This document shows, in pieces, positions 1-34,930 of a DNA stretch of 64,000 nt. The DNA lies in the sequence record OR352954, one strand, 5' to 3'. The stretch comes from Escherichia phage AV124. Position numbers and translations under genes: made by a program. Every line of letters begins with the position of its first letter. The first letter of the stretch is position 1. Under the pieces are notes generated by a model. It saw only the letters and a list, made by a program, of their open reading frames with translations, searched no databases and was not told the origin of the DNA.

Positions 1-1200
1 AGGCCCGTGCATGACAAGGACTATGTTTGTGTCGGGTACACACACGAAGAGATGATCGCCGCCGGATTTACACAGGTTGGTGCAAATTTTGCAGTATACC
101 TTCATCCTGAAACCAAAGAAGAATACGCACTGGCCCGTACTGAGCGCAAAACGGGTGAGGGCCATACTGGCTTTGAGACCTTCTTCAGCCCGGATGTAAC
201 TCTGGAAGAGGATTTATCGCGTCGTGACCTGACGATCAATGCGATGGCTAAAGACATGGAAACAGGATTTATCATTGATCCGTTCAACGGTATGCATGAC
301 CTGTGCAACAGGACTCTTCGTCATACCACTTCGGCATTCATGGATGACCCATTACGTATCCTGCGACTTTTCCGATTCAAGGCCCAGCTGGGTGATGGTT
401 GGACTGTCGATCATGAGACATATAGTCTCGCTTACAACAACCGTTACCGCCTGGCAGAAATTAGCCCAGAACGCAAATGGAAGGAGATGGAGAAAGCTCT
501 TAATTCCAACAACTTTATGAGTTATGCTTACGAAATGGCCGTGCTTGGTGAACTCCCAGAGCTAGATGCCCTTCATGGTGTAGAGCAACCACCTGAGCAT
601 CATCCAGAGGGTGATGCCTTCATCCACACCCTGATGTGCCTGGAGCAGGCAGACAAAACCTTTTGCTCTCCTCAGGTGAAATTTGCGGTGCTGTGCCATG
701 ACTTTGGAAAGGCGATCACTTTCCGTAAGTACGGTAATCTCCTCGGTCATGAAGAAGCTGGTCTTGATCCTGTGCGGACGCTGTGCAGTCGAATTCGAGT
801 TCCTAACGAATTCAGGGATATTGCACTGTACGTGACAGAGCACCATACTCGTGTGCATTGCATTTTGGGCCGTGGGAATAATAAAGGAATCAAGCCACGT
901 TCCATGATGAAGCTTTTCGAAGCCGCAGGTAACGTGGCTAGTCAGAAGACACAGGACAAGGTGTTTGCCTTAGCAGACGCTTGTTTCTGCGATGCCCGTG
1001 GTCGTGGTGCCACGCACGCAGATAAGGAATACCCGCAAGGAAAAATTCTCCTTGATGCTTTCGATGCGGTTGTAAATACGGACAGCAAGGCGGTATCTTC
1101 AGCAATGCTGGAGAAAGGAAAAAGCGGCAAGGAGATCGGTGAGGCGATCCGTGTTGCACGTATTGATGCAATTCGTAATGTCCTTAAGGAGAGATCATGA
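1..1200 (+). CDS. cca: tRNA nucleotidyltransferase (CCA-adding enzyme) with HD domain; 5' end truncated by window edge
   Basis: Frame open from base 1; translation (DKDYVCVGYTHEEMIAAGFTQVG, YALARTERK, RRDLTINA, HHPEGDAFIHTLM, CHDFGKA) matches head and HD-domain motifs of bacterial class II CCA enzymes; track start at 7 is an internal GTG. Confidence 0.85.
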   Translation, partial: RPVHDKDYVCVGYTHEEMIAAGFTQVGANFAVYLHPETKEEYALARTERKTGEGHTGFETFFSPDVTLEEDLSRRDLTINAMAKDMETGFIIDPFNGMHDLCNRTLRHTTSAFMDDPLRILRLFRFKAQLGDGWTVDHETYSLAYNNRYRLAEISPERKWKEMEKALNSNNFMSYAYEMAVLGELPELDALHGVEQPPEHHPEGDAFIHTLMCLEQADKTFCSPQVKFAVLCHDFGKAITFRKYGNLLGHEEAGLDPVRTLCSRIRVPNEFRDIALYVTEHHTRVHCILGRGNNKGIKPRSMMKLFEAAGNVASQKTQDKVFALADACFCDARGRGATHADKEYPQGKILLDAFDAVVNTDSKAVSSAMLEKGKSGKEIGEAIRVARIDAIRNVLKERS

Positions 1201-3261: not shown

Positions 3262-4332
3262 ATGGAAAAGTTTGAAGTGATGCGATGCTATTCCGGTAGC
3301 CTCGCTTATGGCACAAATCTTCCAACTAGTGATGTGGATATTCGGGGTCTGTTCTGCGCCCCACCTAAATTCATCCGCACGCCGTTCTTTAACATCAAAG
3401 AGCAAACCTTGGAAGATGAAGAGGATGGGAAGATTTATGAGTTGACAAACTTCATGAGATTGTTTTCAGAGATGAACCCCAACATCATTGAACTGATGTT
3501 TGTCGATGACAAAGACATTTTACAAACCTCTGAAGTTTATGAATATCTTCGCACAATGGCCCCGGCACTGCTGACCAGTAAGGTAGCGTTCTCCTTCTCT
3601 GGGTATGCGATGGCACAGCTTAAACGTATTCGCGGTCATGATAAGTGGATCAGCAATCCGCAGCCTGAAGAAAAGCCTACGCAAAAAGAGTTCTTCCGAT
3701 TAGTTCACAACTATAGTGAGAACGAATTCCTTGCCGGGGCAATTAAGCACGATCGCTTCATGGAAGCAATGAACAATCTCAACGATATGTGTATCCTTGT
3801 ACCTTATGGGAACGATATCTATGGGGTGATGGAAAACTTCAGTAGCTCAGGGATGTTCAATGCTAACGGTTCAATTCGCCATGTTGACTATCAGCAACTT
3901 TCTGACTCTGACAAGCGGAGAAAACCTGTCTTTATTGTCAAATATTTGGCAGAGGAACACAAACAGGCCAAAGAGAAGCATCGTAACTATTGGACATGGA
4001 AACAGAACCGAAATGAAGTTCGTCACCAGCTCGAAGTTGATTTTGGTTATGACACGAAACATGCGATGCACCTTGTGCGCCTGATGCGTATGGCAGAAGA
4101 GATTCTTTCTGATGGGAAGGTCCTAGTGAAGCGTCCTGATGCTCAGGAACTTCTCGACATCCGGGCAGGTAAGTGGACTCTTGACGAACTGCTCTCTTGG
4201 GCTGATGAGAAGGACCGTTATATTCGTGAGGATCTGTACAAAAAGACACAGCTTCCTAAAATGGCGGATCTTGACCTGTTTGCTAGGGTTCTCATGACGG
4301 CTCAGGATATGTGTTGGAGTAAACTGGTATGA
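3262..4332 (+). CDS. Pol-beta superfamily nucleotidyltransferase
   Basis: N-terminal GS-x9-DVD motif (YSGSLAYGTNLPTSDVDIRG) typical of Pol-beta-fold nucleotidyltransferases; SD GGAGAG upstream. Confidence 0.55.
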   Translation: MEKFEVMRCYSGSLAYGTNLPTSDVDIRGLFCAPPKFIRTPFFNIKEQTLEDEEDGKIYELTNFMRLFSEMNPNIIELMFVDDKDILQTSEVYEYLRTMAPALLTSKVAFSFSGYAMAQLKRIRGHDKWISNPQPEEKPTQKEFFRLVHNYSENEFLAGAIKHDRFMEAMNNLNDMCILVPYGNDIYGVMENFSSSGMFNANGSIRHVDYQQLSDSDKRRKPVFIVKYLAEEHKQAKEKHRNYWTWKQNRNEVRHQLEVDFGYDTKHAMHLVRLMRMAEEILSDGKVLVKRPDAQELLDIRAGKWTLDELLSWADEKDRYIREDLYKKTQLPKMADLDLFARVLMTAQDMCWSKLV

Positions 4333-25910: not shown

Positions 25911-26171
25911 TTAATTCATCACCCTTTGCAATGCAATTTGGGGTAAAAATTCATCTATCCCCTCAACCCTGAAACCCCACGCTAATTGTGGACCAGGCGC
26001 TCCCGGAAGGTGAGGAACAGCAAACAAGACGATCCCATCAATAGCTCCGCGAATCGCGTTCTCTGTGAAAGTCTCTACCAGATCCCCGAAATTAAGACCC
26101 GGCCTGAAGCCAGCATTCAGCATTTTTTGCTCTGGCGCGGATGCAGGCCTGCCCAAGATATCTTCGTACAT
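25911..26171 (-). CDS. hypothetical protein
   Basis: ORF in minus-strand array. Confidence 0.4.
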   Translation of the reverse strand: MYEDILGRPASAPEQKMLNAGFRPGLNFGDLVETFTENAIRGAIDGIVLFAVPHLPGAPGPQLAWGFRVEGIDEFLPQIALQRVMN

Positions 26172-27037
26172 TACACCACCTTGTTGAGCATTGCTGCAAC
26201 TTTTGGCAGGCTCAGGCCCGTCTGGATCATCAGTTGGGTCATCGCAGTTTCCATTTTCTTGGAGACAATGATGAAATTATCTTTGGCAAAGCCAATGTTC
26301 AGATCCAGAATCAGAATAGATTTCGGTTCTTCAGTTAATTTTTCACCAGATAAGGCACAGGTGTTGCGAATGTATCGTGCCTTAAATTGCGAATAGGTGA
26401 CCGATACAGACATTCCAGCCTCGTGGAAGGTGTTGCAGTAACGGGCATACGCCAATGCAACAGAGACGTCCTCAGGCAACTTCTGGGCCTCTTTCTGAGC
26501 ACTTGTCTCTTCCGCCGCAGGTTTTTGGTTGTGAACATGTTCTTCGGCATTATCCATAGCGTTCTGCATTGTCTCTTCAGTATTCATTTCGTTCTCCTGT
26601 TGTGGGATATATTTGGTTTTCAGTTTTTCAAGGTGGTCTTTGGACATGTTCAACATCATGGCCTTTACTATTTCGCGATCTAAAGGATCTTGAATCAGTA
26701 TAGATGTTGTCTTGTCAACTAAACGGTCCTTAAGTTGGTTTGCGCGAAGCATAACCACACAGACGTTTCCCCGGACATACCCTTTCGAGTCATCGATTCT
26801 CTCTATAGACGGATACCTTGGGTTAGCTTCCTCACCATCATTCGCGATGTTGGTACTGAAAGGTAGCCCCGTGTAATCACAAGAGCCGTGGCCCAAAAGC
26901 TTGAATCCGAGCATACGCATATCTTGCATTGTTAAATCACAGTCAAGGCCCCGTTTTCGAGCATTCAACTTCTTATGCTTCAAACGATTCCTCAACTTTT
27001 CCACTTCTTCAGGTGTAAACTCTTGTAATACAGACAT
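26171..27037 (-). CDS. HNH endonuclease-like protein
   Basis: CDYTGLPF...PSIERIDDSKGYVRGNVCVVMLRANQLK matches phage HNH nuclease core; SD AAGGAG. Confidence 0.5.
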   Translation of the reverse strand: MSVLQEFTPEEVEKLRNRLKHKKLNARKRGLDCDLTMQDMRMLGFKLLGHGSCDYTGLPFSTNIANDGEEANPRYPSIERIDDSKGYVRGNVCVVMLRANQLKDRLVDKTTSILIQDPLDREIVKAMMLNMSKDHLEKLKTKYIPQQENEMNTEETMQNAMDNAEEHVHNQKPAAEETSAQKEAQKLPEDVSVALAYARYCNTFHEAGMSVSVTYSQFKARYIRNTCALSGEKLTEEPKSILILDLNIGFAKDNFIIVSKKMETAMTQLMIQTGLSLPKVAAMLNKVV

Positions 27038-27076
27038 TTCTAACTCCTTGGGTCTTGCCCGTTCTTAGTAAGGTGA

Positions 27077-27104
27077 TTATCACCATTCGGAAAAGGGTTG
27101 TCAA
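27077..27104 (-). promoter_or_regulatory. sigma70 consensus promoter TTGACA-N17-GATAAT (minus strand) in divergent region
   Basis: Minus-strand read TTGACA ACCCTTTTCCGAATGGT GATAAT upstream of SD AAGGAG and ATG at 27037. Confidence 0.5.
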
Positions 27105-27170
27105 CCCTTGATTTCTAAAAAGTGGCGGTGTATCTTTGTCCATTATTCGTATAAGAGGGTAAGTGAGATT

Positions 27171-28178
27171 ATGAGCAAAGTAGATATTAATGTAAAACCA
27201 AACGAGGCTTGGAATGAGGAGCGAGATTTCATAGATAAGTTGTTACAAGGGAAGCAGGCTGCTCAAGAGAGATTTCTTTCAACTTTTGAGAGGGACAGAC
27301 ATGTTGACAATCCCATCACCCGCTTTATCGAGTATCTTCGTGGGGTGGGGGATCAGAATCCTGTGTTGGAAATTGTTTTGTCTTGCCTTCATAAACTTCC
27401 CACACATGGCGGACCTTTTTATTGGGAATGGTTTGATGGTAATGATGAGGATGTGATGGATTTCGCTTTTGATATGAATCGGAAGACTACCTCTCATTCC
27501 CTATCCAGTATGGTGGCAGAGCATAGAACACATCGCACAGGCGGAAATCATCCTTGGTCAGATCGTTTAACAGAGACAGTGGAACTTTGTTTTCATGGTC
27601 ATGGGAATAGTGAGGCGTTTAAATGCTCGTTCTGGGATTTTTCACACCGTACCCGCAATTTTCTTTATCATTTGAAGCCTCTTCTTGAGGATATGTCGAA
27701 TGGGGATGACCTTCGTTTAGTTGTAGAGTATGCGAGTCATCAAAGAAATGCCTCGATATCGTGGAAGAATCTCCCTGCTGGTCGATTTGAACTTCTGCAT
27801 GTGAGGCTGGTTTGTGGTGACTTGGTTCTTTACTCTGACTATCTTGAGCCTTCGGCGTTCGATCGTGTTTGTAGCCAACTGAACCATTCTGTTATCAACA
27901 TCATGAACAGAAAGATCGCTAATAAGGCACGTAAAGCAATGTTCGTTTGTTCTCCGAAAGAAACGATGTTCCACTTGGAATATGACCCCAAGCTACAGAG
28001 CATGATGGAGGGGGACTCCCCGACAGAAGAAGAACTCATGATGATGTCTATTGCAGGATATGAAGATGAGTTTTGGCTTGACAACGTAAAATCTTTCGAT
28101 AGACTGAACATAAAACCCTTTAACCTAGAGGAAGCTGTCAAATGGTATCAACAGACAAGAGTTGTATTCAAGCTTTAA
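27171..28178 (+). CDS. hypothetical protein
   Basis: First gene of rightward block; track ORF 27108 trimmed to ATG after AGAGGG. Confidence 0.5.
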   Translation: MSKVDINVKPNEAWNEERDFIDKLLQGKQAAQERFLSTFERDRHVDNPITRFIEYLRGVGDQNPVLEIVLSCLHKLPTHGGPFYWEWFDGNDEDVMDFAFDMNRKTTSHSLSSMVAEHRTHRTGGNHPWSDRLTETVELCFHGHGNSEAFKCSFWDFSHRTRNFLYHLKPLLEDMSNGDDLRLVVEYASHQRNASISWKNLPAGRFELLHVRLVCGDLVLYSDYLEPSAFDRVCSQLNHSVINIMNRKIANKARKAMFVCSPKETMFHLEYDPKLQSMMEGDSPTEEELMMMSIAGYEDEFWLDNVKSFDRLNIKPFNLEEAVKWYQQTRVVFKL

Positions 28179-28651
28179 GTCCAGCACAAGAACTTGCTTT
28201 GGCAATTAAAATTGCAGCAGAAGGCCACCTGAATCAGAAAGATAAGGGTGGTAACCCGTACATCCTTCATCCACTGAAGGTAATGCACTACCTGAAGACT
28301 GATGATTTTCAGCTCATGGCTATCGCTGCCCTACATGATGTTATCGAAGATACTGACGTTATGGCGGCTGATCTCGTGATGATGGGATTCTCCAACCGTG
28401 TTGTCTGTGCAGTGGTCCTACTGACGAAGACACCAAACCAGTCACCAGAAGAATATTTTCAGGGTATTGCAAGCAACTACGACGCGGTTCGTGTGAAGCT
28501 TGCAGACCTGCGTCACAACTCTGACGTTCGTCGCCTGAAAGGTCTGACAGATAAGGATTTGTTGCGTGTTCGTAAGTATCACGACATGTATCTTCGTTTG
28601 ACAAAGATGAAAGAACACCACGAAGCGATCAACGTCTTATCTAAACTATAA
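28142..28651 (+). CDS. HD-domain phosphohydrolase, SpoT/RelA (p)ppGpp-hydrolase-like
   Basis: GNPYILHPLKV and AALHDVIEDTD match the SpoT-type HD hydrolase signature. Confidence 0.75.
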   Translation: MVSTDKSCIQALSPAQELALAIKIAAEGHLNQKDKGGNPYILHPLKVMHYLKTDDFQLMAIAALHDVIEDTDVMAADLVMMGFSNRVVCAVVLLTKTPNQSPEEYFQGIASNYDAVRVKLADLRHNSDVRRLKGLTDKDLLRVRKYHDMYLRLTKMKEHHEAINVLSKL

Positions 28652-31964: not shown

Positions 31965-32473
31965 AGGAGAGCGAAGAGGCATTGCAGGCACTTAAATCTT
32001 CCTTCTCATATGACCCTGAGACAGGTTTGTTTACTTGTATCAATCCTCTCGCTCGTCGTCATTTTGGTAAGGTTGCAGGCACAAAAAGGAAAGATGGGTA
32101 TATACGCCTCGGTGTTAAGGTAAGCGGCAAGCTGAAAATGTTTCTCGCGCATAGGGTTGCCTGGGCTTTTTATCACGGTGTGTGGCCTGATGGCCTTATT
32201 GACCATAAAGACTGGGACAGACAAAATAATAAAATAGACAATCTCAGGGTTGTTGACAAAAGCACAAATAATTATTATTATTCCCCTTGGAAAGGGAAGT
32301 CACAGACAGGTTACAGGGGTGTTAGGATAGATAAAAGGAGAAATCCTCCCAGATATCAAGCTATTTTCTGCGACACTCATCTTGGGATGTTCTCTACAGC
32401 AGAAGAGGCATATGCTTGCTATCAAAAGTATGTTATGAAGACACAGGAGATTATCGCAGATGCTGAAATATAA
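31955..32473 (+). CDS. HNH homing endonuclease with AP2-like DNA-binding domain
   Basis: HRVAWAFYHG...IDHKDWDRQNNKIDNLRVV (HNH) followed by GYRGVRI...YQA (AP2-like). Confidence 0.65.
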   Translation: MQMKESEEALQALKSSFSYDPETGLFTCINPLARRHFGKVAGTKRKDGYIRLGVKVSGKLKMFLAHRVAWAFYHGVWPDGLIDHKDWDRQNNKIDNLRVVDKSTNNYYYSPWKGKSQTGYRGVRIDKRRNPPRYQAIFCDTHLGMFSTAEEAYACYQKYVMKTQEIIADAEI

Positions 32474-32951
32474 AGTTGGTGATTTGATTAAAGCTATTCA
32501 AGATGGTGAAGTAAATGTTTTTGGTCATGGTTGTAATTGCTTTGTGACTATGGGTAGCGGGATCGCCCCGTTGATCAAAGAAGCATTCCCTAAGATGTAC
32601 GCTGCCGACCTGAAAACTGAGAAGGGCGACAAGACCAAGCTGGGAACCTGTACAATGGCCTTTTTGAATGATGGGTCTCTCGTAGGATTTAATCTGTACT
32701 CACAGTACGGTTATAATCGCCGCAAACAGGGTCTCAGGGACCTTGACTACAATGCCCTGTATGATTCAATGGTTGAAATGAAAAAGCTCTTACAGAGCTA
32801 TACAGACGGCCCTATGGACACCTATCGAATCGGGTTCCCTAAACTAGGTGCTGGGCTTGCAGGGGGTGACTGGAATGTCATCGAAGCAATGATCAAATCA
32901 ATCTTCTTTGATTGTGATGTAACTGTGTACATTCTGCCGGAGAAAAAGTGA
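32460..32951 (+). CDS. macro domain protein (ADP-ribose binding/processing)
   Basis: GDLIKA..VNVFGHGCNCFVTMGSGIAPLI and IGFPKLGAGLAGGDW match macro-domain core motifs. Confidence 0.65.
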   Translation: MLKYKVGDLIKAIQDGEVNVFGHGCNCFVTMGSGIAPLIKEAFPKMYAADLKTEKGDKTKLGTCTMAFLNDGSLVGFNLYSQYGYNRRKQGLRDLDYNALYDSMVEMKKLLQSYTDGPMDTYRIGFPKLGAGLAGGDWNVIEAMIKSIFFDCDVTVYILPEKK

Positions 32952-33541: not shown

Positions 33542-33894
33542 CCATGAATGAATCTGTAGATTCTGCAACCACCCCAATGATCGGTGGTAAGATTTACGCT
33601 GGCGTTATCATCAACGCCCGTCCGTTTGTGGAGGTATGGCCCCGTTGTATTTGTGGTTATCTGGCTGGCAAGGATCATCACAACCGAGGGTTTGATAATG
33701 GCCCTATTCGTACCTCCACGGTGCAAAGCCTGCTGCTGGAGAATGGTAAGCTATTCGCCATCACACTGAATAGCGCTTATCGCCTAGAATCTGTAGATCT
33801 GGCAGCTTTTCTTAATTGTCCTGGGTGGTTCGATGACCTTGATAATTTGATCACTCAGGCTGTAGCTCCTAAAAAGGGGGTGTCCATTGACTAA
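33538..33894 (+). CDS. hypothetical protein
   Basis: ATGA overlap with upstream gene. Confidence 0.45.
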   Translation: MTMNESVDSATTPMIGGKIYAGVIINARPFVEVWPRCICGYLAGKDHHNRGFDNGPIRTSTVQSLLLENGKLFAITLNSAYRLESVDLAAFLNCPGWFDDLDNLITQAVAPKKGVSID

Positions 33895-34930
33895 ACCAAT
33901 TAAATACCCAAGCACCGCACAGTTCCGTCAGGTTATCCGCACCATGCATGATAAACTGACGTTCGACGGTCTTGATGAAGAAGGCAATATCAAGCGTAAG
34001 GTTTTGCCACCGGACGCATACTTGATCCCGTACATTGGTACGGTTAAGCTCCACGGCACAAATGGTAGCGTGGTATTCCACTCTGAGGATGAAGTTGTCT
34101 TCCAGTCCAAAGAGCGTGTCGTTACTGTAGGTGACGATAACAATGGCTTCGCGGCTTTCATGTCTCGAAAAGACACCTCAGAGCTGCTTTCCCAGGTTAA
34201 ATACCTGTGTGAAGTCAATGAAGTTGAGTTCCAGTTCCCGGTTGAAATTGCTGGTGAATGGGCTGGTCGCGGCATTCAGAAAGGTGTTGCCATCACTGAA
34301 GTAGAGCCATTCTTTGCTATCTTCCGTGTGGCTGTAGGCCGGGATGAGGCGACGGATACCCTCAACTGGCTACCACCAACGTTCCAGTTTGGAATGGGAT
34401 TGCCGGATGCTCGTATCTACAGTATCCTTGACTTCGGTTACTGGATGGCTAATATCCCATTCAATGAGCCAGAACTTGTCCAGAATGACTTGGCAGAACT
34501 GACTCGTGAAGTGGAAAACAAATGCCCGGCAGGTAAGTTCTTTGGCGTAGAAGGTATCGGTGAAGGCATTGTCTGGTCTCCAAAAGATCCTGAGCTTTCT
34601 AAAATCTCTGGTCTGTGGTTTAAAGTCAAGGGTGATAAACATTCTGTATCCAAAGTTAAGACCCTGGCAGCGATCGACCCAGAACGCCTCGCAAGTATGC
34701 GTGAGTTCGTTGAGTACGCTGTGACGGAAGCACGTCTTGAGCAGGGTGTTAGCGAAGTCGGTCTTGACCAGACTAAGATTGGTGAATTCATTGGATGGAT
34801 TAACCGAGACATCAACAAGGAAGAGGGTGATGTTCTGGAAGCCAGCTCCATGACCATGAAAGATGTTGGTAAGTTTATCAGCAACAAAGCTCGTGCATGG
34901 TACATGACTCGTCTGAGTGAGGAGGGCTAA
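33887..34930 (+). CDS. RNA ligase, Rnl2-like
   Basis: Nucleotidyltransferase motif I KLHGTN, EIAGEWAGRGIQKGV (cf. T4 Rnl2 FGEFAGPGIQKNV), motif IV EGIVW, motif V WFKVKGDK. Confidence 0.75.
   Translation: MTKPIKYPSTAQFRQVIRTMHDKLTFDGLDEEGNIKRKVLPPDAYLIPYIGTVKLHGTNGSVVFHSEDEVVFQSKERVVTVGDDNNGFAAFMSRKDTSELLSQVKYLCEVNEVEFQFPVEIAGEWAGRGIQKGVAITEVEPFFAIFRVAVGRDEATDTLNWLPPTFQFGMGLPDARIYSILDFGYWMANIPFNEPELVQNDLAELTREVENKCPAGKFFGVEGIGEGIVWSPKDPELSKISGLWFKVKGDKHSVSKVKTLAAIDPERLASMREFVEYAVTEARLEQGVSEVGLDQTKIGEFIGWINRDINKEEGDVLEASSMTMKDVGKFISNKARAWYMTRLSEEG

Follow-up and report, generated by a model that had tools for sequence, protein, structure and literature searches.

What a virulent phage gains from a small hydrolase of the RelA/SpoT kind, and on which nucleotides such an enzyme would act, is the question raised by a gene located at 28142..28651 (+, stop codon included) of a 64,000-nucleotide stretch of Escherichia phage AV124, referred to here as the window. 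AV124 is a wastewater Mydovirus (Vequintavirinae) isolated on extended-spectrum β-lactamase (ESBL) E. coli, with a genome of 144,944 bp and 44.7% GC (GenBank OR352954; PMC10844046). The original prediction for this gene was a phage-encoded, stand-alone SpoT-like HD hydrolase that could suppress the host stringent response or degrade nucleotide signals used by defence systems. Our analysis places the product, which we call the small alarmone hydrolase (SAH) of AV124, closest to the Bacteroides caccae enzyme Aph1, a (p)ppApp hydrolase; we consider it likely that it is an Aph1-type, Mg2+/Mn2+-dependent 3'-pyrophosphohydrolase of adenosine 3'-pyrophosphate substrates with a role against toxic small alarmone synthetases (toxSAS).

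The gene itself was predicted correctly. It is an ATG..TAA open reading frame (ORF) of 169 amino acids, and its translation contains both of the motifs quoted in the prediction, GNPYILHPLKV (residues 37-47, 28250-28282, +) and AALHDVIEDTD (residues 62-72, 28325..28357, +). The product matches PHROG 990 (“metal-dependent phosphohydrolase”) with an E value of 1.5e-67, a search of a large protein collection gave 3,742 homologues (E<=1e-3), and a deposited AV124 “putative metal dependent phosphohydrolase” is 100% identical to it. The dN/dS ratio calculated by the Nei-Gojobori method was 0.068 against the orthologue of phage PVP-SE1 and 0.047 against that of Klebsiella phage Seu621; the gene is under strong purifying selection and is a real gene, a chance ORF being excluded. 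At 44.7%, the gene has the same GC content as the window, and the window DNA is ~89-93% identical to Mydovirus and Seunavirus phages (Vequintavirinae) of Klebsiella, Raoultella, Proteus and Salmonella.

The membership in the RelA/SpoT superfamily claimed for the protein was borne out by profile, Protein Data Bank (PDB) and fold comparisons. The match to the NCBIfam model TIGR00691 (E 2e-14) covers no more than the N-terminal HD part of this profile, positions 1-84 out of 687. HD_4 was the sole Pfam domain match and, at 21 bits, it lies below the gathering score of 27.2 bits; because this match is weak, the family assignment was built on PDB, PHROG, NCBIfam and structural evidence. When the single sequence was used as query, the best PDB match was Aph1 (7smg, E 3.6e-27), followed at a distance by Rel (~2e-9) and MESH1 (~1e-5 to 1e-6). 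A profile of 32 sequences gave the same first match, with Aph1 at 5.9e-35 (123 bits) and RelSeq next at 7.5e-16 (61 bits).

Structure prediction led to the same relative. The AlphaFold2 (AF2) monomer model is all-helical, with a mean pLDDT of 93.0 and a pTM of 0.88, and Foldseek superimposed it on 7smg at a root-mean-square deviation (rmsd) of 1.2 Å, a target-normalised template modelling (TM) score of 0.93 and 37% identity; the runner-up, MESH1, gave an rmsd of 3.6-4.4 Å, and the top 41 Foldseek matches in the PDB were exclusively hydrolase domains of Aph1, MESH1, SAH, Rel or SpoT proteins. The Aph1 protomer has eight helices, whereas (p)ppGpp hydrolases have at least nine, including a helix 0 and a helix 9 that Aph1 lacks (PMC10083569). 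DSSP assigned nine elements to the model, one of them a turn of four residues, and both termini are longer than those of Aph1; the C-terminus is a single long helix (137-168), with no added fold-back helix. The AV124 protein is thus a stand-alone, single-domain HD hydrolase of the RelA/SpoT superfamily, without synthetase, TGS or ACT domains. That it carries no synthetase domain had also been foreseen, and agrees with the length of 169 amino acids and with the confinement of the TIGR00691 match to the HD part.

Its closest characterised relative is Aph1 rather than SpoT. Both proteins are phage-borne and share 39.7% identity over 136 amino acids, in an alignment that spans Aph1 residues 8-147 and includes 19 identities among the 54 positions of Y90-E143, the family-defining C-terminal region. 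The AV124 protein differs in being ~10 residues longer at the N-terminus and in having a C-terminal helix ~14 residues longer. By analogy, its Aph-family membership would make a tetramer and ppApp specificity, which are known for Aph1, predictions at most for the AV124 enzyme.

Catalytic and base-specificity residues were read from an alignment of the AV124 protein with Aph1 and 120 homologues. Residues H29, H43, H65-D66, E69-D70, D122 and N126 align with Aph1 H19, H33, H53-D54, E57-D58, D110 and N114. The whole set, D122 and N126 included, is invariant or almost so: H65, D66 and D70 are found in all 120 homologues, H29 and H43 in 118 and E69 in 117. Two of these positions, together with the Aph-type aspartate D34, fall in the segment H29-V47 (HLNQKDKGGNPYILHPLKV; 28226..28282, +); the AALHDVIEDTD motif holds the metal-binding HD dyad H65-D66 and the ED pair E69-D70; and the C-terminal specificity region K119-Y146 (28496..28579, +) holds D122 and N126 (catalytic / ribose contact) as well as D128, R131, K145 and Y146.

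Six residues have been described as conserved in Aph enzymes and absent from (p)ppGpp hydrolases, namely D24, R96, D116, R119, K133 and Y134 of Aph1 (PMC10083569). Five of the six are present in the AV124 protein as D34, D128, R131, K145 and Y146, respectively for D24, D116, R119, K133 and Y134; D34 is conserved in 118/120 homologues and the other four in 120/120. The residue aligned with D34 is an arginine in Rel and in PaSpo of Salmonella phage SSU5, so that the guanine-contacting arginine of SpoT/Rel enzymes (R43 of TtRel, the Arg of “QxRKSG” in helix 2) is replaced by Asp34 in the AV124 protein. These base-pocket residues would favour adenosine over guanosine substrates. The claim of a “(p)ppGpp hydrolase HD signature” therefore needs correction: the motifs are there, but they are the generic metal-binding and catalytic motifs common to all RelA/SpoT homologue (RSH) hydrolases, and the residues that bear on base specificity match Aph1.

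The protein has an orthologue in a phage whose alarmone hydrolase has been tested. With gp220 of PVP-SE1 (136782..137291) it shares 89.3% identity in an alignment covering 100% of the protein, and a tblastn search of the complete PVP-SE1 genome with the AV124 protein, Aph1 and SSU5 PaSpo as queries (E<=10) returned gp220 as the sole match; since no second RSH-type hydrolase was detected in that genome, we equate gp220 with the “PVP-SE1 SAH (PbcSpo)” of Jimmy et al. 2020. Through this orthology the AV124 protein would be placed in the PbcSpo subfamily. PVP-SE1 also belongs to the Vequintavirinae, although it is a Seunavirus growing on Salmonella and AV124 is a Mydovirus isolated on E. coli. Gp220 too has 169 amino acids, with every catalytic and Aph-signature residue identical, and its gene likewise follows a divergent junction and a phrog_10920 ORF, which it overlaps by the same 37 nt, with a MoxR-like ATPase downstream. 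The two proteins differ by 18 amino-acid changes, mostly in the 13 N-terminal residues and at surface positions.

When co-expressed in E. coli, the PVP-SE1 SAH neutralised all five validated toxSAS, namely CapRel, PhRel2, FaRel2, PhRel and FaRel (PMC7229694, Table 1), and the authors of that study explicitly proposed that incoming phages could evade alarmone-based defence by means of encoded hydrolases (PMC7229694). The part of the original prediction that linked the gene to defence signalling thus finds support in the published behaviour of its orthologue. FaRel produces (pp)pApp (PMC7229694; 10.1101/2021.04.30.441581), and the other four of the five toxins pyrophosphorylate the CCA end of tRNA, a modification that SAHs are able to undo (10.1101/2021.04.30.441581), as observed in vitro for MESH1 and ATfaRel (10.1101/2021.04.30.441581). 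All five toxins yield a 3'-pyrophosphorylated adenosine, either free or as A76 of tRNA, which by our own inference fits an adenine-type pocket. CapRel defends E. coli against phages and is present in a Salmonella prophage, in Klebsiella pneumoniae and in Enterobacter (PMC9712102); the bacteria with reported CapRel systems are hosts of the phage group of AV124. In phage therapy, the gene may broaden host range on CapRel-bearing Klebsiella, E. coli and Salmonella.

Because the active site is of the Aph1 type and the pocket residues favour adenine, 3'-pyrophosphorylated adenosines are the likely substrates of the AV124 enzyme, and a mechanism can be proposed. A centre formed by H29, H43, H65-D66 and D122 would bind the metal, and the E69-D70 pair would activate the water that cleaves the 3'-pyrophosphate. 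D34, D128 and R131 would line the base pocket, with adenine preferred over guanine, and K145 and Y146 would contact the phosphates. Candidate substrates are (pp)pApp made by synthetases of the FaRel/Tas1 type, and also the 3'-terminal A76 of tRNA pyrophosphorylated by CapRel, FaRel2, PhRel and PhRel2; removal of the pyrophosphate would regenerate ATP/ADP or a chargeable tRNA, and toxSAS-type abortive-infection systems of enterobacterial hosts would be defeated. The gene, its fold, its catalytic and specificity residues and the orthology to PVP-SE1 gp220 are established here; we infer the adenosine preference of the AV124 enzyme, its action on tRNA ends and its use as a counter-defence in real infection.

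Several points weigh against this assignment to an adenosine-directed, anti-toxSAS enzyme. The sixth signature residue, Aph1 R96, is Gly108 in AV124, at a position where 93 of the 120 homologues have G, 13 have R and 8 have A; it is the only signature residue that lies away from the active site (PMC10083569). Experimental support for the lineage is confined to co-expression rescue, made with the PVP-SE1 protein, the AV124 protein being known from its sequence. Literature searches gave no phage deletion mutant turned sensitive to toxSAS, and neither biochemical work on the SAH of the Vequintavirinae lineage nor an infection experiment with it, against CapRel/toxSAS included. The gene would belong to an early or replication-type region, early expression being read from gene position only. 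Furthermore, SSU5 PaSpo, a Rel/MESH1-like enzyme with Arg in place of D34, neutralises the same toxins, which indicates that the Aph signature is dispensable for anti-toxSAS activity and limits what can be read from it. Finally, although ppApp was hydrolysed by 12/12 purified Aph homologues (PMC10083569), 2/12 also displayed modest activity on ppGpp (PMC10083569), and ATfaRel of Cellulomonas marina, classed by Jimmy et al. as PbcSpo like the PVP-SE1 protein, decreased the ppGpp level in vivo (PMC7229694); because of these two observations, strict adenosine specificity is not assured.

The same two observations speak for a different role, in which a SpoT-like (p)ppGpp hydrolase would lower host ppGpp, block the stringent response and keep the infected cell metabolically active. 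The AV124 protein has its HD superfamily in common with the hydrolase domains of SpoT and Rel, many records name its homologues “guanosine-3',5'-bis(diphosphate) 3'-pyrophosphohydrolase”, and one report describes phages as open to restriction by the stringent response (10.64898/2026.01.27.700999). However, Asp34 stands where the guanine-stacking arginine would be expected and R131 would occupy the space needed by guanine O6. Wild-type Aph1 has no detectable ppGpp activity (PMC10083569) and acts on this nucleotide only as the D24R/R119A double mutant (PMC10083569), and in both sequence and fold the protein is far nearer to Aph1 than to any ppGpp hydrolase. Since the base-specificity residues match Aph1, which is also the closest solved relative, we regard suppression of the stringent response, the first of the two roles originally suggested, as the less likely one, and ppGpp removal as an unlikely main function.

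Comparison with SpoT/Rel domains and metazoan MESH1 illustrates the same distinction: they share the HD superfamily fold and the H..HD..ED..D..N constellation with the AV124 protein, but their E values are 16-30 orders of magnitude weaker than that of Aph1, and an Asp replaces their guanine-contacting Arg. SSU5 PaSpo (SSU5_099, 213 amino acids) is, like the AV124 protein, a stand-alone phage SAH; it neutralises all five toxSAS (PMC7229694) and is in routine use to detoxify FaRel2, PhRel2 and CapRel while these are expressed. It is nevertheless only 32% identical to the AV124 protein over 115 amino acids (E 5e-7), 44 residues longer, and in the PDB it matches Rel, SpoT and MESH1 best (~1e-14 to 1e-11), with Aph1 at 2.9e-7. 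Judged by these comparisons, the AV124 protein falls outside the PaSpo subfamily and two types of phage SAH are separable. The PVP-SE1 type (Aph1-like, Asp) and the SSU5 type (Rel/MESH1-like, Arg) neutralise the same toxins, and with this contrast the two lend themselves to testing if the removal of pyrophosphate from tRNA depends on base specificity.

ATfaRel is a PbcSpo SAH according to Jimmy et al. and neutralises the same five toxSAS by hydrolysis; in vitro, tRNA modified by FaRel2 can be aminoacylated again after its action. It differs from the AV124 gene in being a type IV antitoxin encoded in a three-gene operon with the toxin FaRel, whereas the AV124 gene has no toxin partner.

Aph1 itself raises the question of whether the AV124 protein could provide immunity to a toxin of the phage's own that synthesises (p)ppApp, on the model of Aph1 and the MuF-fused Apk2 of a Bacteroides prophage. 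This is precisely the role of its closest characterised homologue (PMC10083569), and phages encoding alarmone synthetase toxins exist. Against it, a Pfam search of the ORFs flanking the gene found no domain and no RSH synthetase, and a crude six-frame motif scan of the window, which covers 64 kb of the 144,944-bp genome, found no ExQxRT-like or DxxGxR-like synthetase motif, a weak negative as no profile search was made. Because neither the flanks nor the window show a synthetase domain or motif, a toxin-immunity pair of this kind is argued against. In addition, the gene heads its operon without a companion in phages UPEC06 and CR9, the PVP-SE1 protein was described as a stand-alone SAH (PMC7229694), and MuF genes lie near just 0.4% of Aph homologues (PMC10083569). 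Aph1 is an immunity protein encoded beside the MuF-Apk2 toxin in a temperate phage and the AV124 gene is a stand-alone one in a virulent myovirus; we hold an immunity function to be very improbable, the least probable of the roles weighed here.

Another substrate, or another source of (p)ppApp, was also considered: the enzyme could be a MESH1-like NADPH phosphatase, act on pGpp or other 3'-phosphorylated nucleotides, or degrade (p)ppApp that bacterial neighbours inject during infection through a type VI secretion system (T6SS; Tas1/Apk1). SAHs are promiscuous, as exemplified by MESH1, whose hydrolytic activity extends to NADPH, (p)ppGpp, (p)ppApp and tRNA with a pyrophosphorylated end (10.1101/2021.04.30.441581; PDB titles), PaSAH protects against Tas1, and metabolic promiscuity has been reported for an orphan SAH of bacteria (PMC9765508). 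On the other hand, the matches to MESH1 and PaSAH are far weaker than the match to Aph1, the sole phenotype demonstrated for the orthologue is toxSAS neutralisation, and T6SS attack has no supported relevance to a lytic infection lasting minutes. Such activities therefore appear improbable as the main function, even more so than ppGpp removal.

Within the preferred anti-toxSAS reading, the content of the window brings forward a narrower possibility. The ORF at 7..1200 (+) has a PolyA_pol head and an HD domain and resembles CCA-adding tRNA nucleotidyltransferases, its PVP-SE1 orthologue being annotated as tRNA nucleotidyl transferase; 3262..4332 (+) encodes a Pol-beta nucleotidyltransferase of the RlaP “RNA repair pathway” type, and 33887..34930 (+) an RNA ligase, syntenic with PVP-SE1 gp239, annotated as RnlB RNA ligase 2. 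The presence of genes of the RNA/tRNA-end repair type together with an SAH would suggest an investment in functional tRNA 3' ends. ARAGORN detected no tRNA genes in the window; in the PVP-SE1 genome a large tRNA cluster occupies 62.9-70.0 kb, so the cluster of AV124 presumably lies beyond the window. It is conceivable, though we put it forward as a doubtful proposal, that the AV124 enzyme is strictly adenosine-specific, that its substrate during infection is the tRNA CCA end pyrophosphorylated by CapRel-type toxins, and that it would act in RNA-end repair alongside the tRNA/RNA-repair genes of the window while leaving host ppGpp untouched. If so, the Vequintavirinae would carry a built-in, broad counter-defence against toxSAS. 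Literature searches gave no demonstration of tRNA-end repair by an SAH against toxSAS while a phage infects its host.

The SAH gene is the second gene of a rightward operon that begins at a divergent junction. The ORF map and a promoter scan delimit this intergenic region at 27038..27167; it contains a strong leftward promoter-like sequence, TTGACA-17-GATAAT, with 11/12 matches at 27104..27076, and a promoter is annotated at the equivalent divergent-junction position of PVP-SE1. The start of the SAH gene overlaps by 37 nt the end of the co-oriented upstream ORF, inside whose 3' end a Shine-Dalgarno-like GAGGAA can be read from the sequence at 28128..28133 (+), 8 nt before the ATG, where it may serve in translation initiation. 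A sigma-70-like match, TTGACA-16-TAGACT (10/12), also lies inside the upstream ORF at 28078..28105 (+), 37 nt before the ATG; it is a consensus match only, and constitutes weak evidence because 9 such matches occur in a region where 4.7 +/- 2.3 would be expected.

In UPEC06 and CR9, which are more distantly related Vequintavirinae, the divergent junction is followed at once by the SAH gene, and throughout the Vequintavirinae compared this gene is the first of that operon or close to the first. Downstream of it in AV124 there are small ORFs of unknown function and the MoxR-like ATPase and, farther away, an RNA ligase, rIIA/rIIB, helicases and DNA polymerase.

The upstream ORF (27168..28178, +) is labelled “thymidylate kinase” in PHROG 10920 and in RefSeq relatives. 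It yielded no Pfam match, no PDB sequence match and no Walker A motif, and the label looks unsupported. This ORF was considered as a functional partner of the SAH or as a toxin; since UPEC06 and CR9 have no such ORF ahead of their SAH gene, it was rejected as a conserved partner.

Across the junction, the leftward neighbour (26171..27037, -) matches PHROGs of HNH endonucleases (phrog_3118, 2.7e-94) and also those of T4 Srd, “anti-sigma factor / decoy of sigma70” (1.6e-22 and 1.5e-17); it has no Pfam match, and the labels of its relatives conflict in the same way, being “anti-sigma factor” in some and “HNH endonuclease” in others. Farther downstream, the ORF at 32460..32951 (+) encodes 163 amino acids with a borderline match to the Macro domain (PF01661, E 2.4e-4, 21.5 bits against a cut-off of 22 bits), and the PVP-SE1 gene at the matching position, gp232, is annotated “putative phosphatase (Tk.4-like)”; its product could be an ADP-ribose-related hydrolase.

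Aph1-like genes were found in 408 phage records, including those of Pseudomonas Pakpunavirus, Aeromonas T4-like phages, pneumococcal prophages and Vequintavirinae. The finding as such is already known, since the AV124 protein is deposited and the SAH of its lineage was tested in 2020 against toxSAS. Its importance is modest, and lies in phage alarmone hydrolases being a proposed and under-tested counter-defence against toxSAS/CapRel abortive infection. It also lies in a correction of annotation, the Vequintavirinae protein being an Aph1-type hydrolase that bears adenosine-specificity residues.

In the databases, SAH labels among the Vequintavirinae vary between “metal-dependent phosphohydrolase”, “ppGpp pyrophosphohydrolase”, “GTP pyrophosphokinase” and “(p)ppGpp synthase”. 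“GTP pyrophosphokinase” is attached to hydrolase-only homologues of Escherichia phage UPEC06, Aeromonas phage AS4 and Pseudomonas phage vB_PF_Y1-MI, and “putative (p)ppGpp synthase” to that of Erwinia phage pEp_SNUABM_01; because the synthetase domain is absent, these synthase and pyrophosphokinase labels are mis-annotations. In four records of Klebsiella phages (OY978796.1, OY978784.1, OY757067.1 and OY979426.1) the SAH-homologous region bears unrelated feature names, namely Sir2, Rz-like spanin, nicotinamide phosphoribosyl transferase and major head protein, which suggests that annotation table and sequence are shifted against each other in these records. Salmonella phage NINP13076 (MZ326168.1) has two places that match the SAH, with two short products of 121 and 126 amino acids (P0086 and P0087); a duplication of the gene, with terminal repeats as one example, together with truncation or faulty gene calling may account for this.

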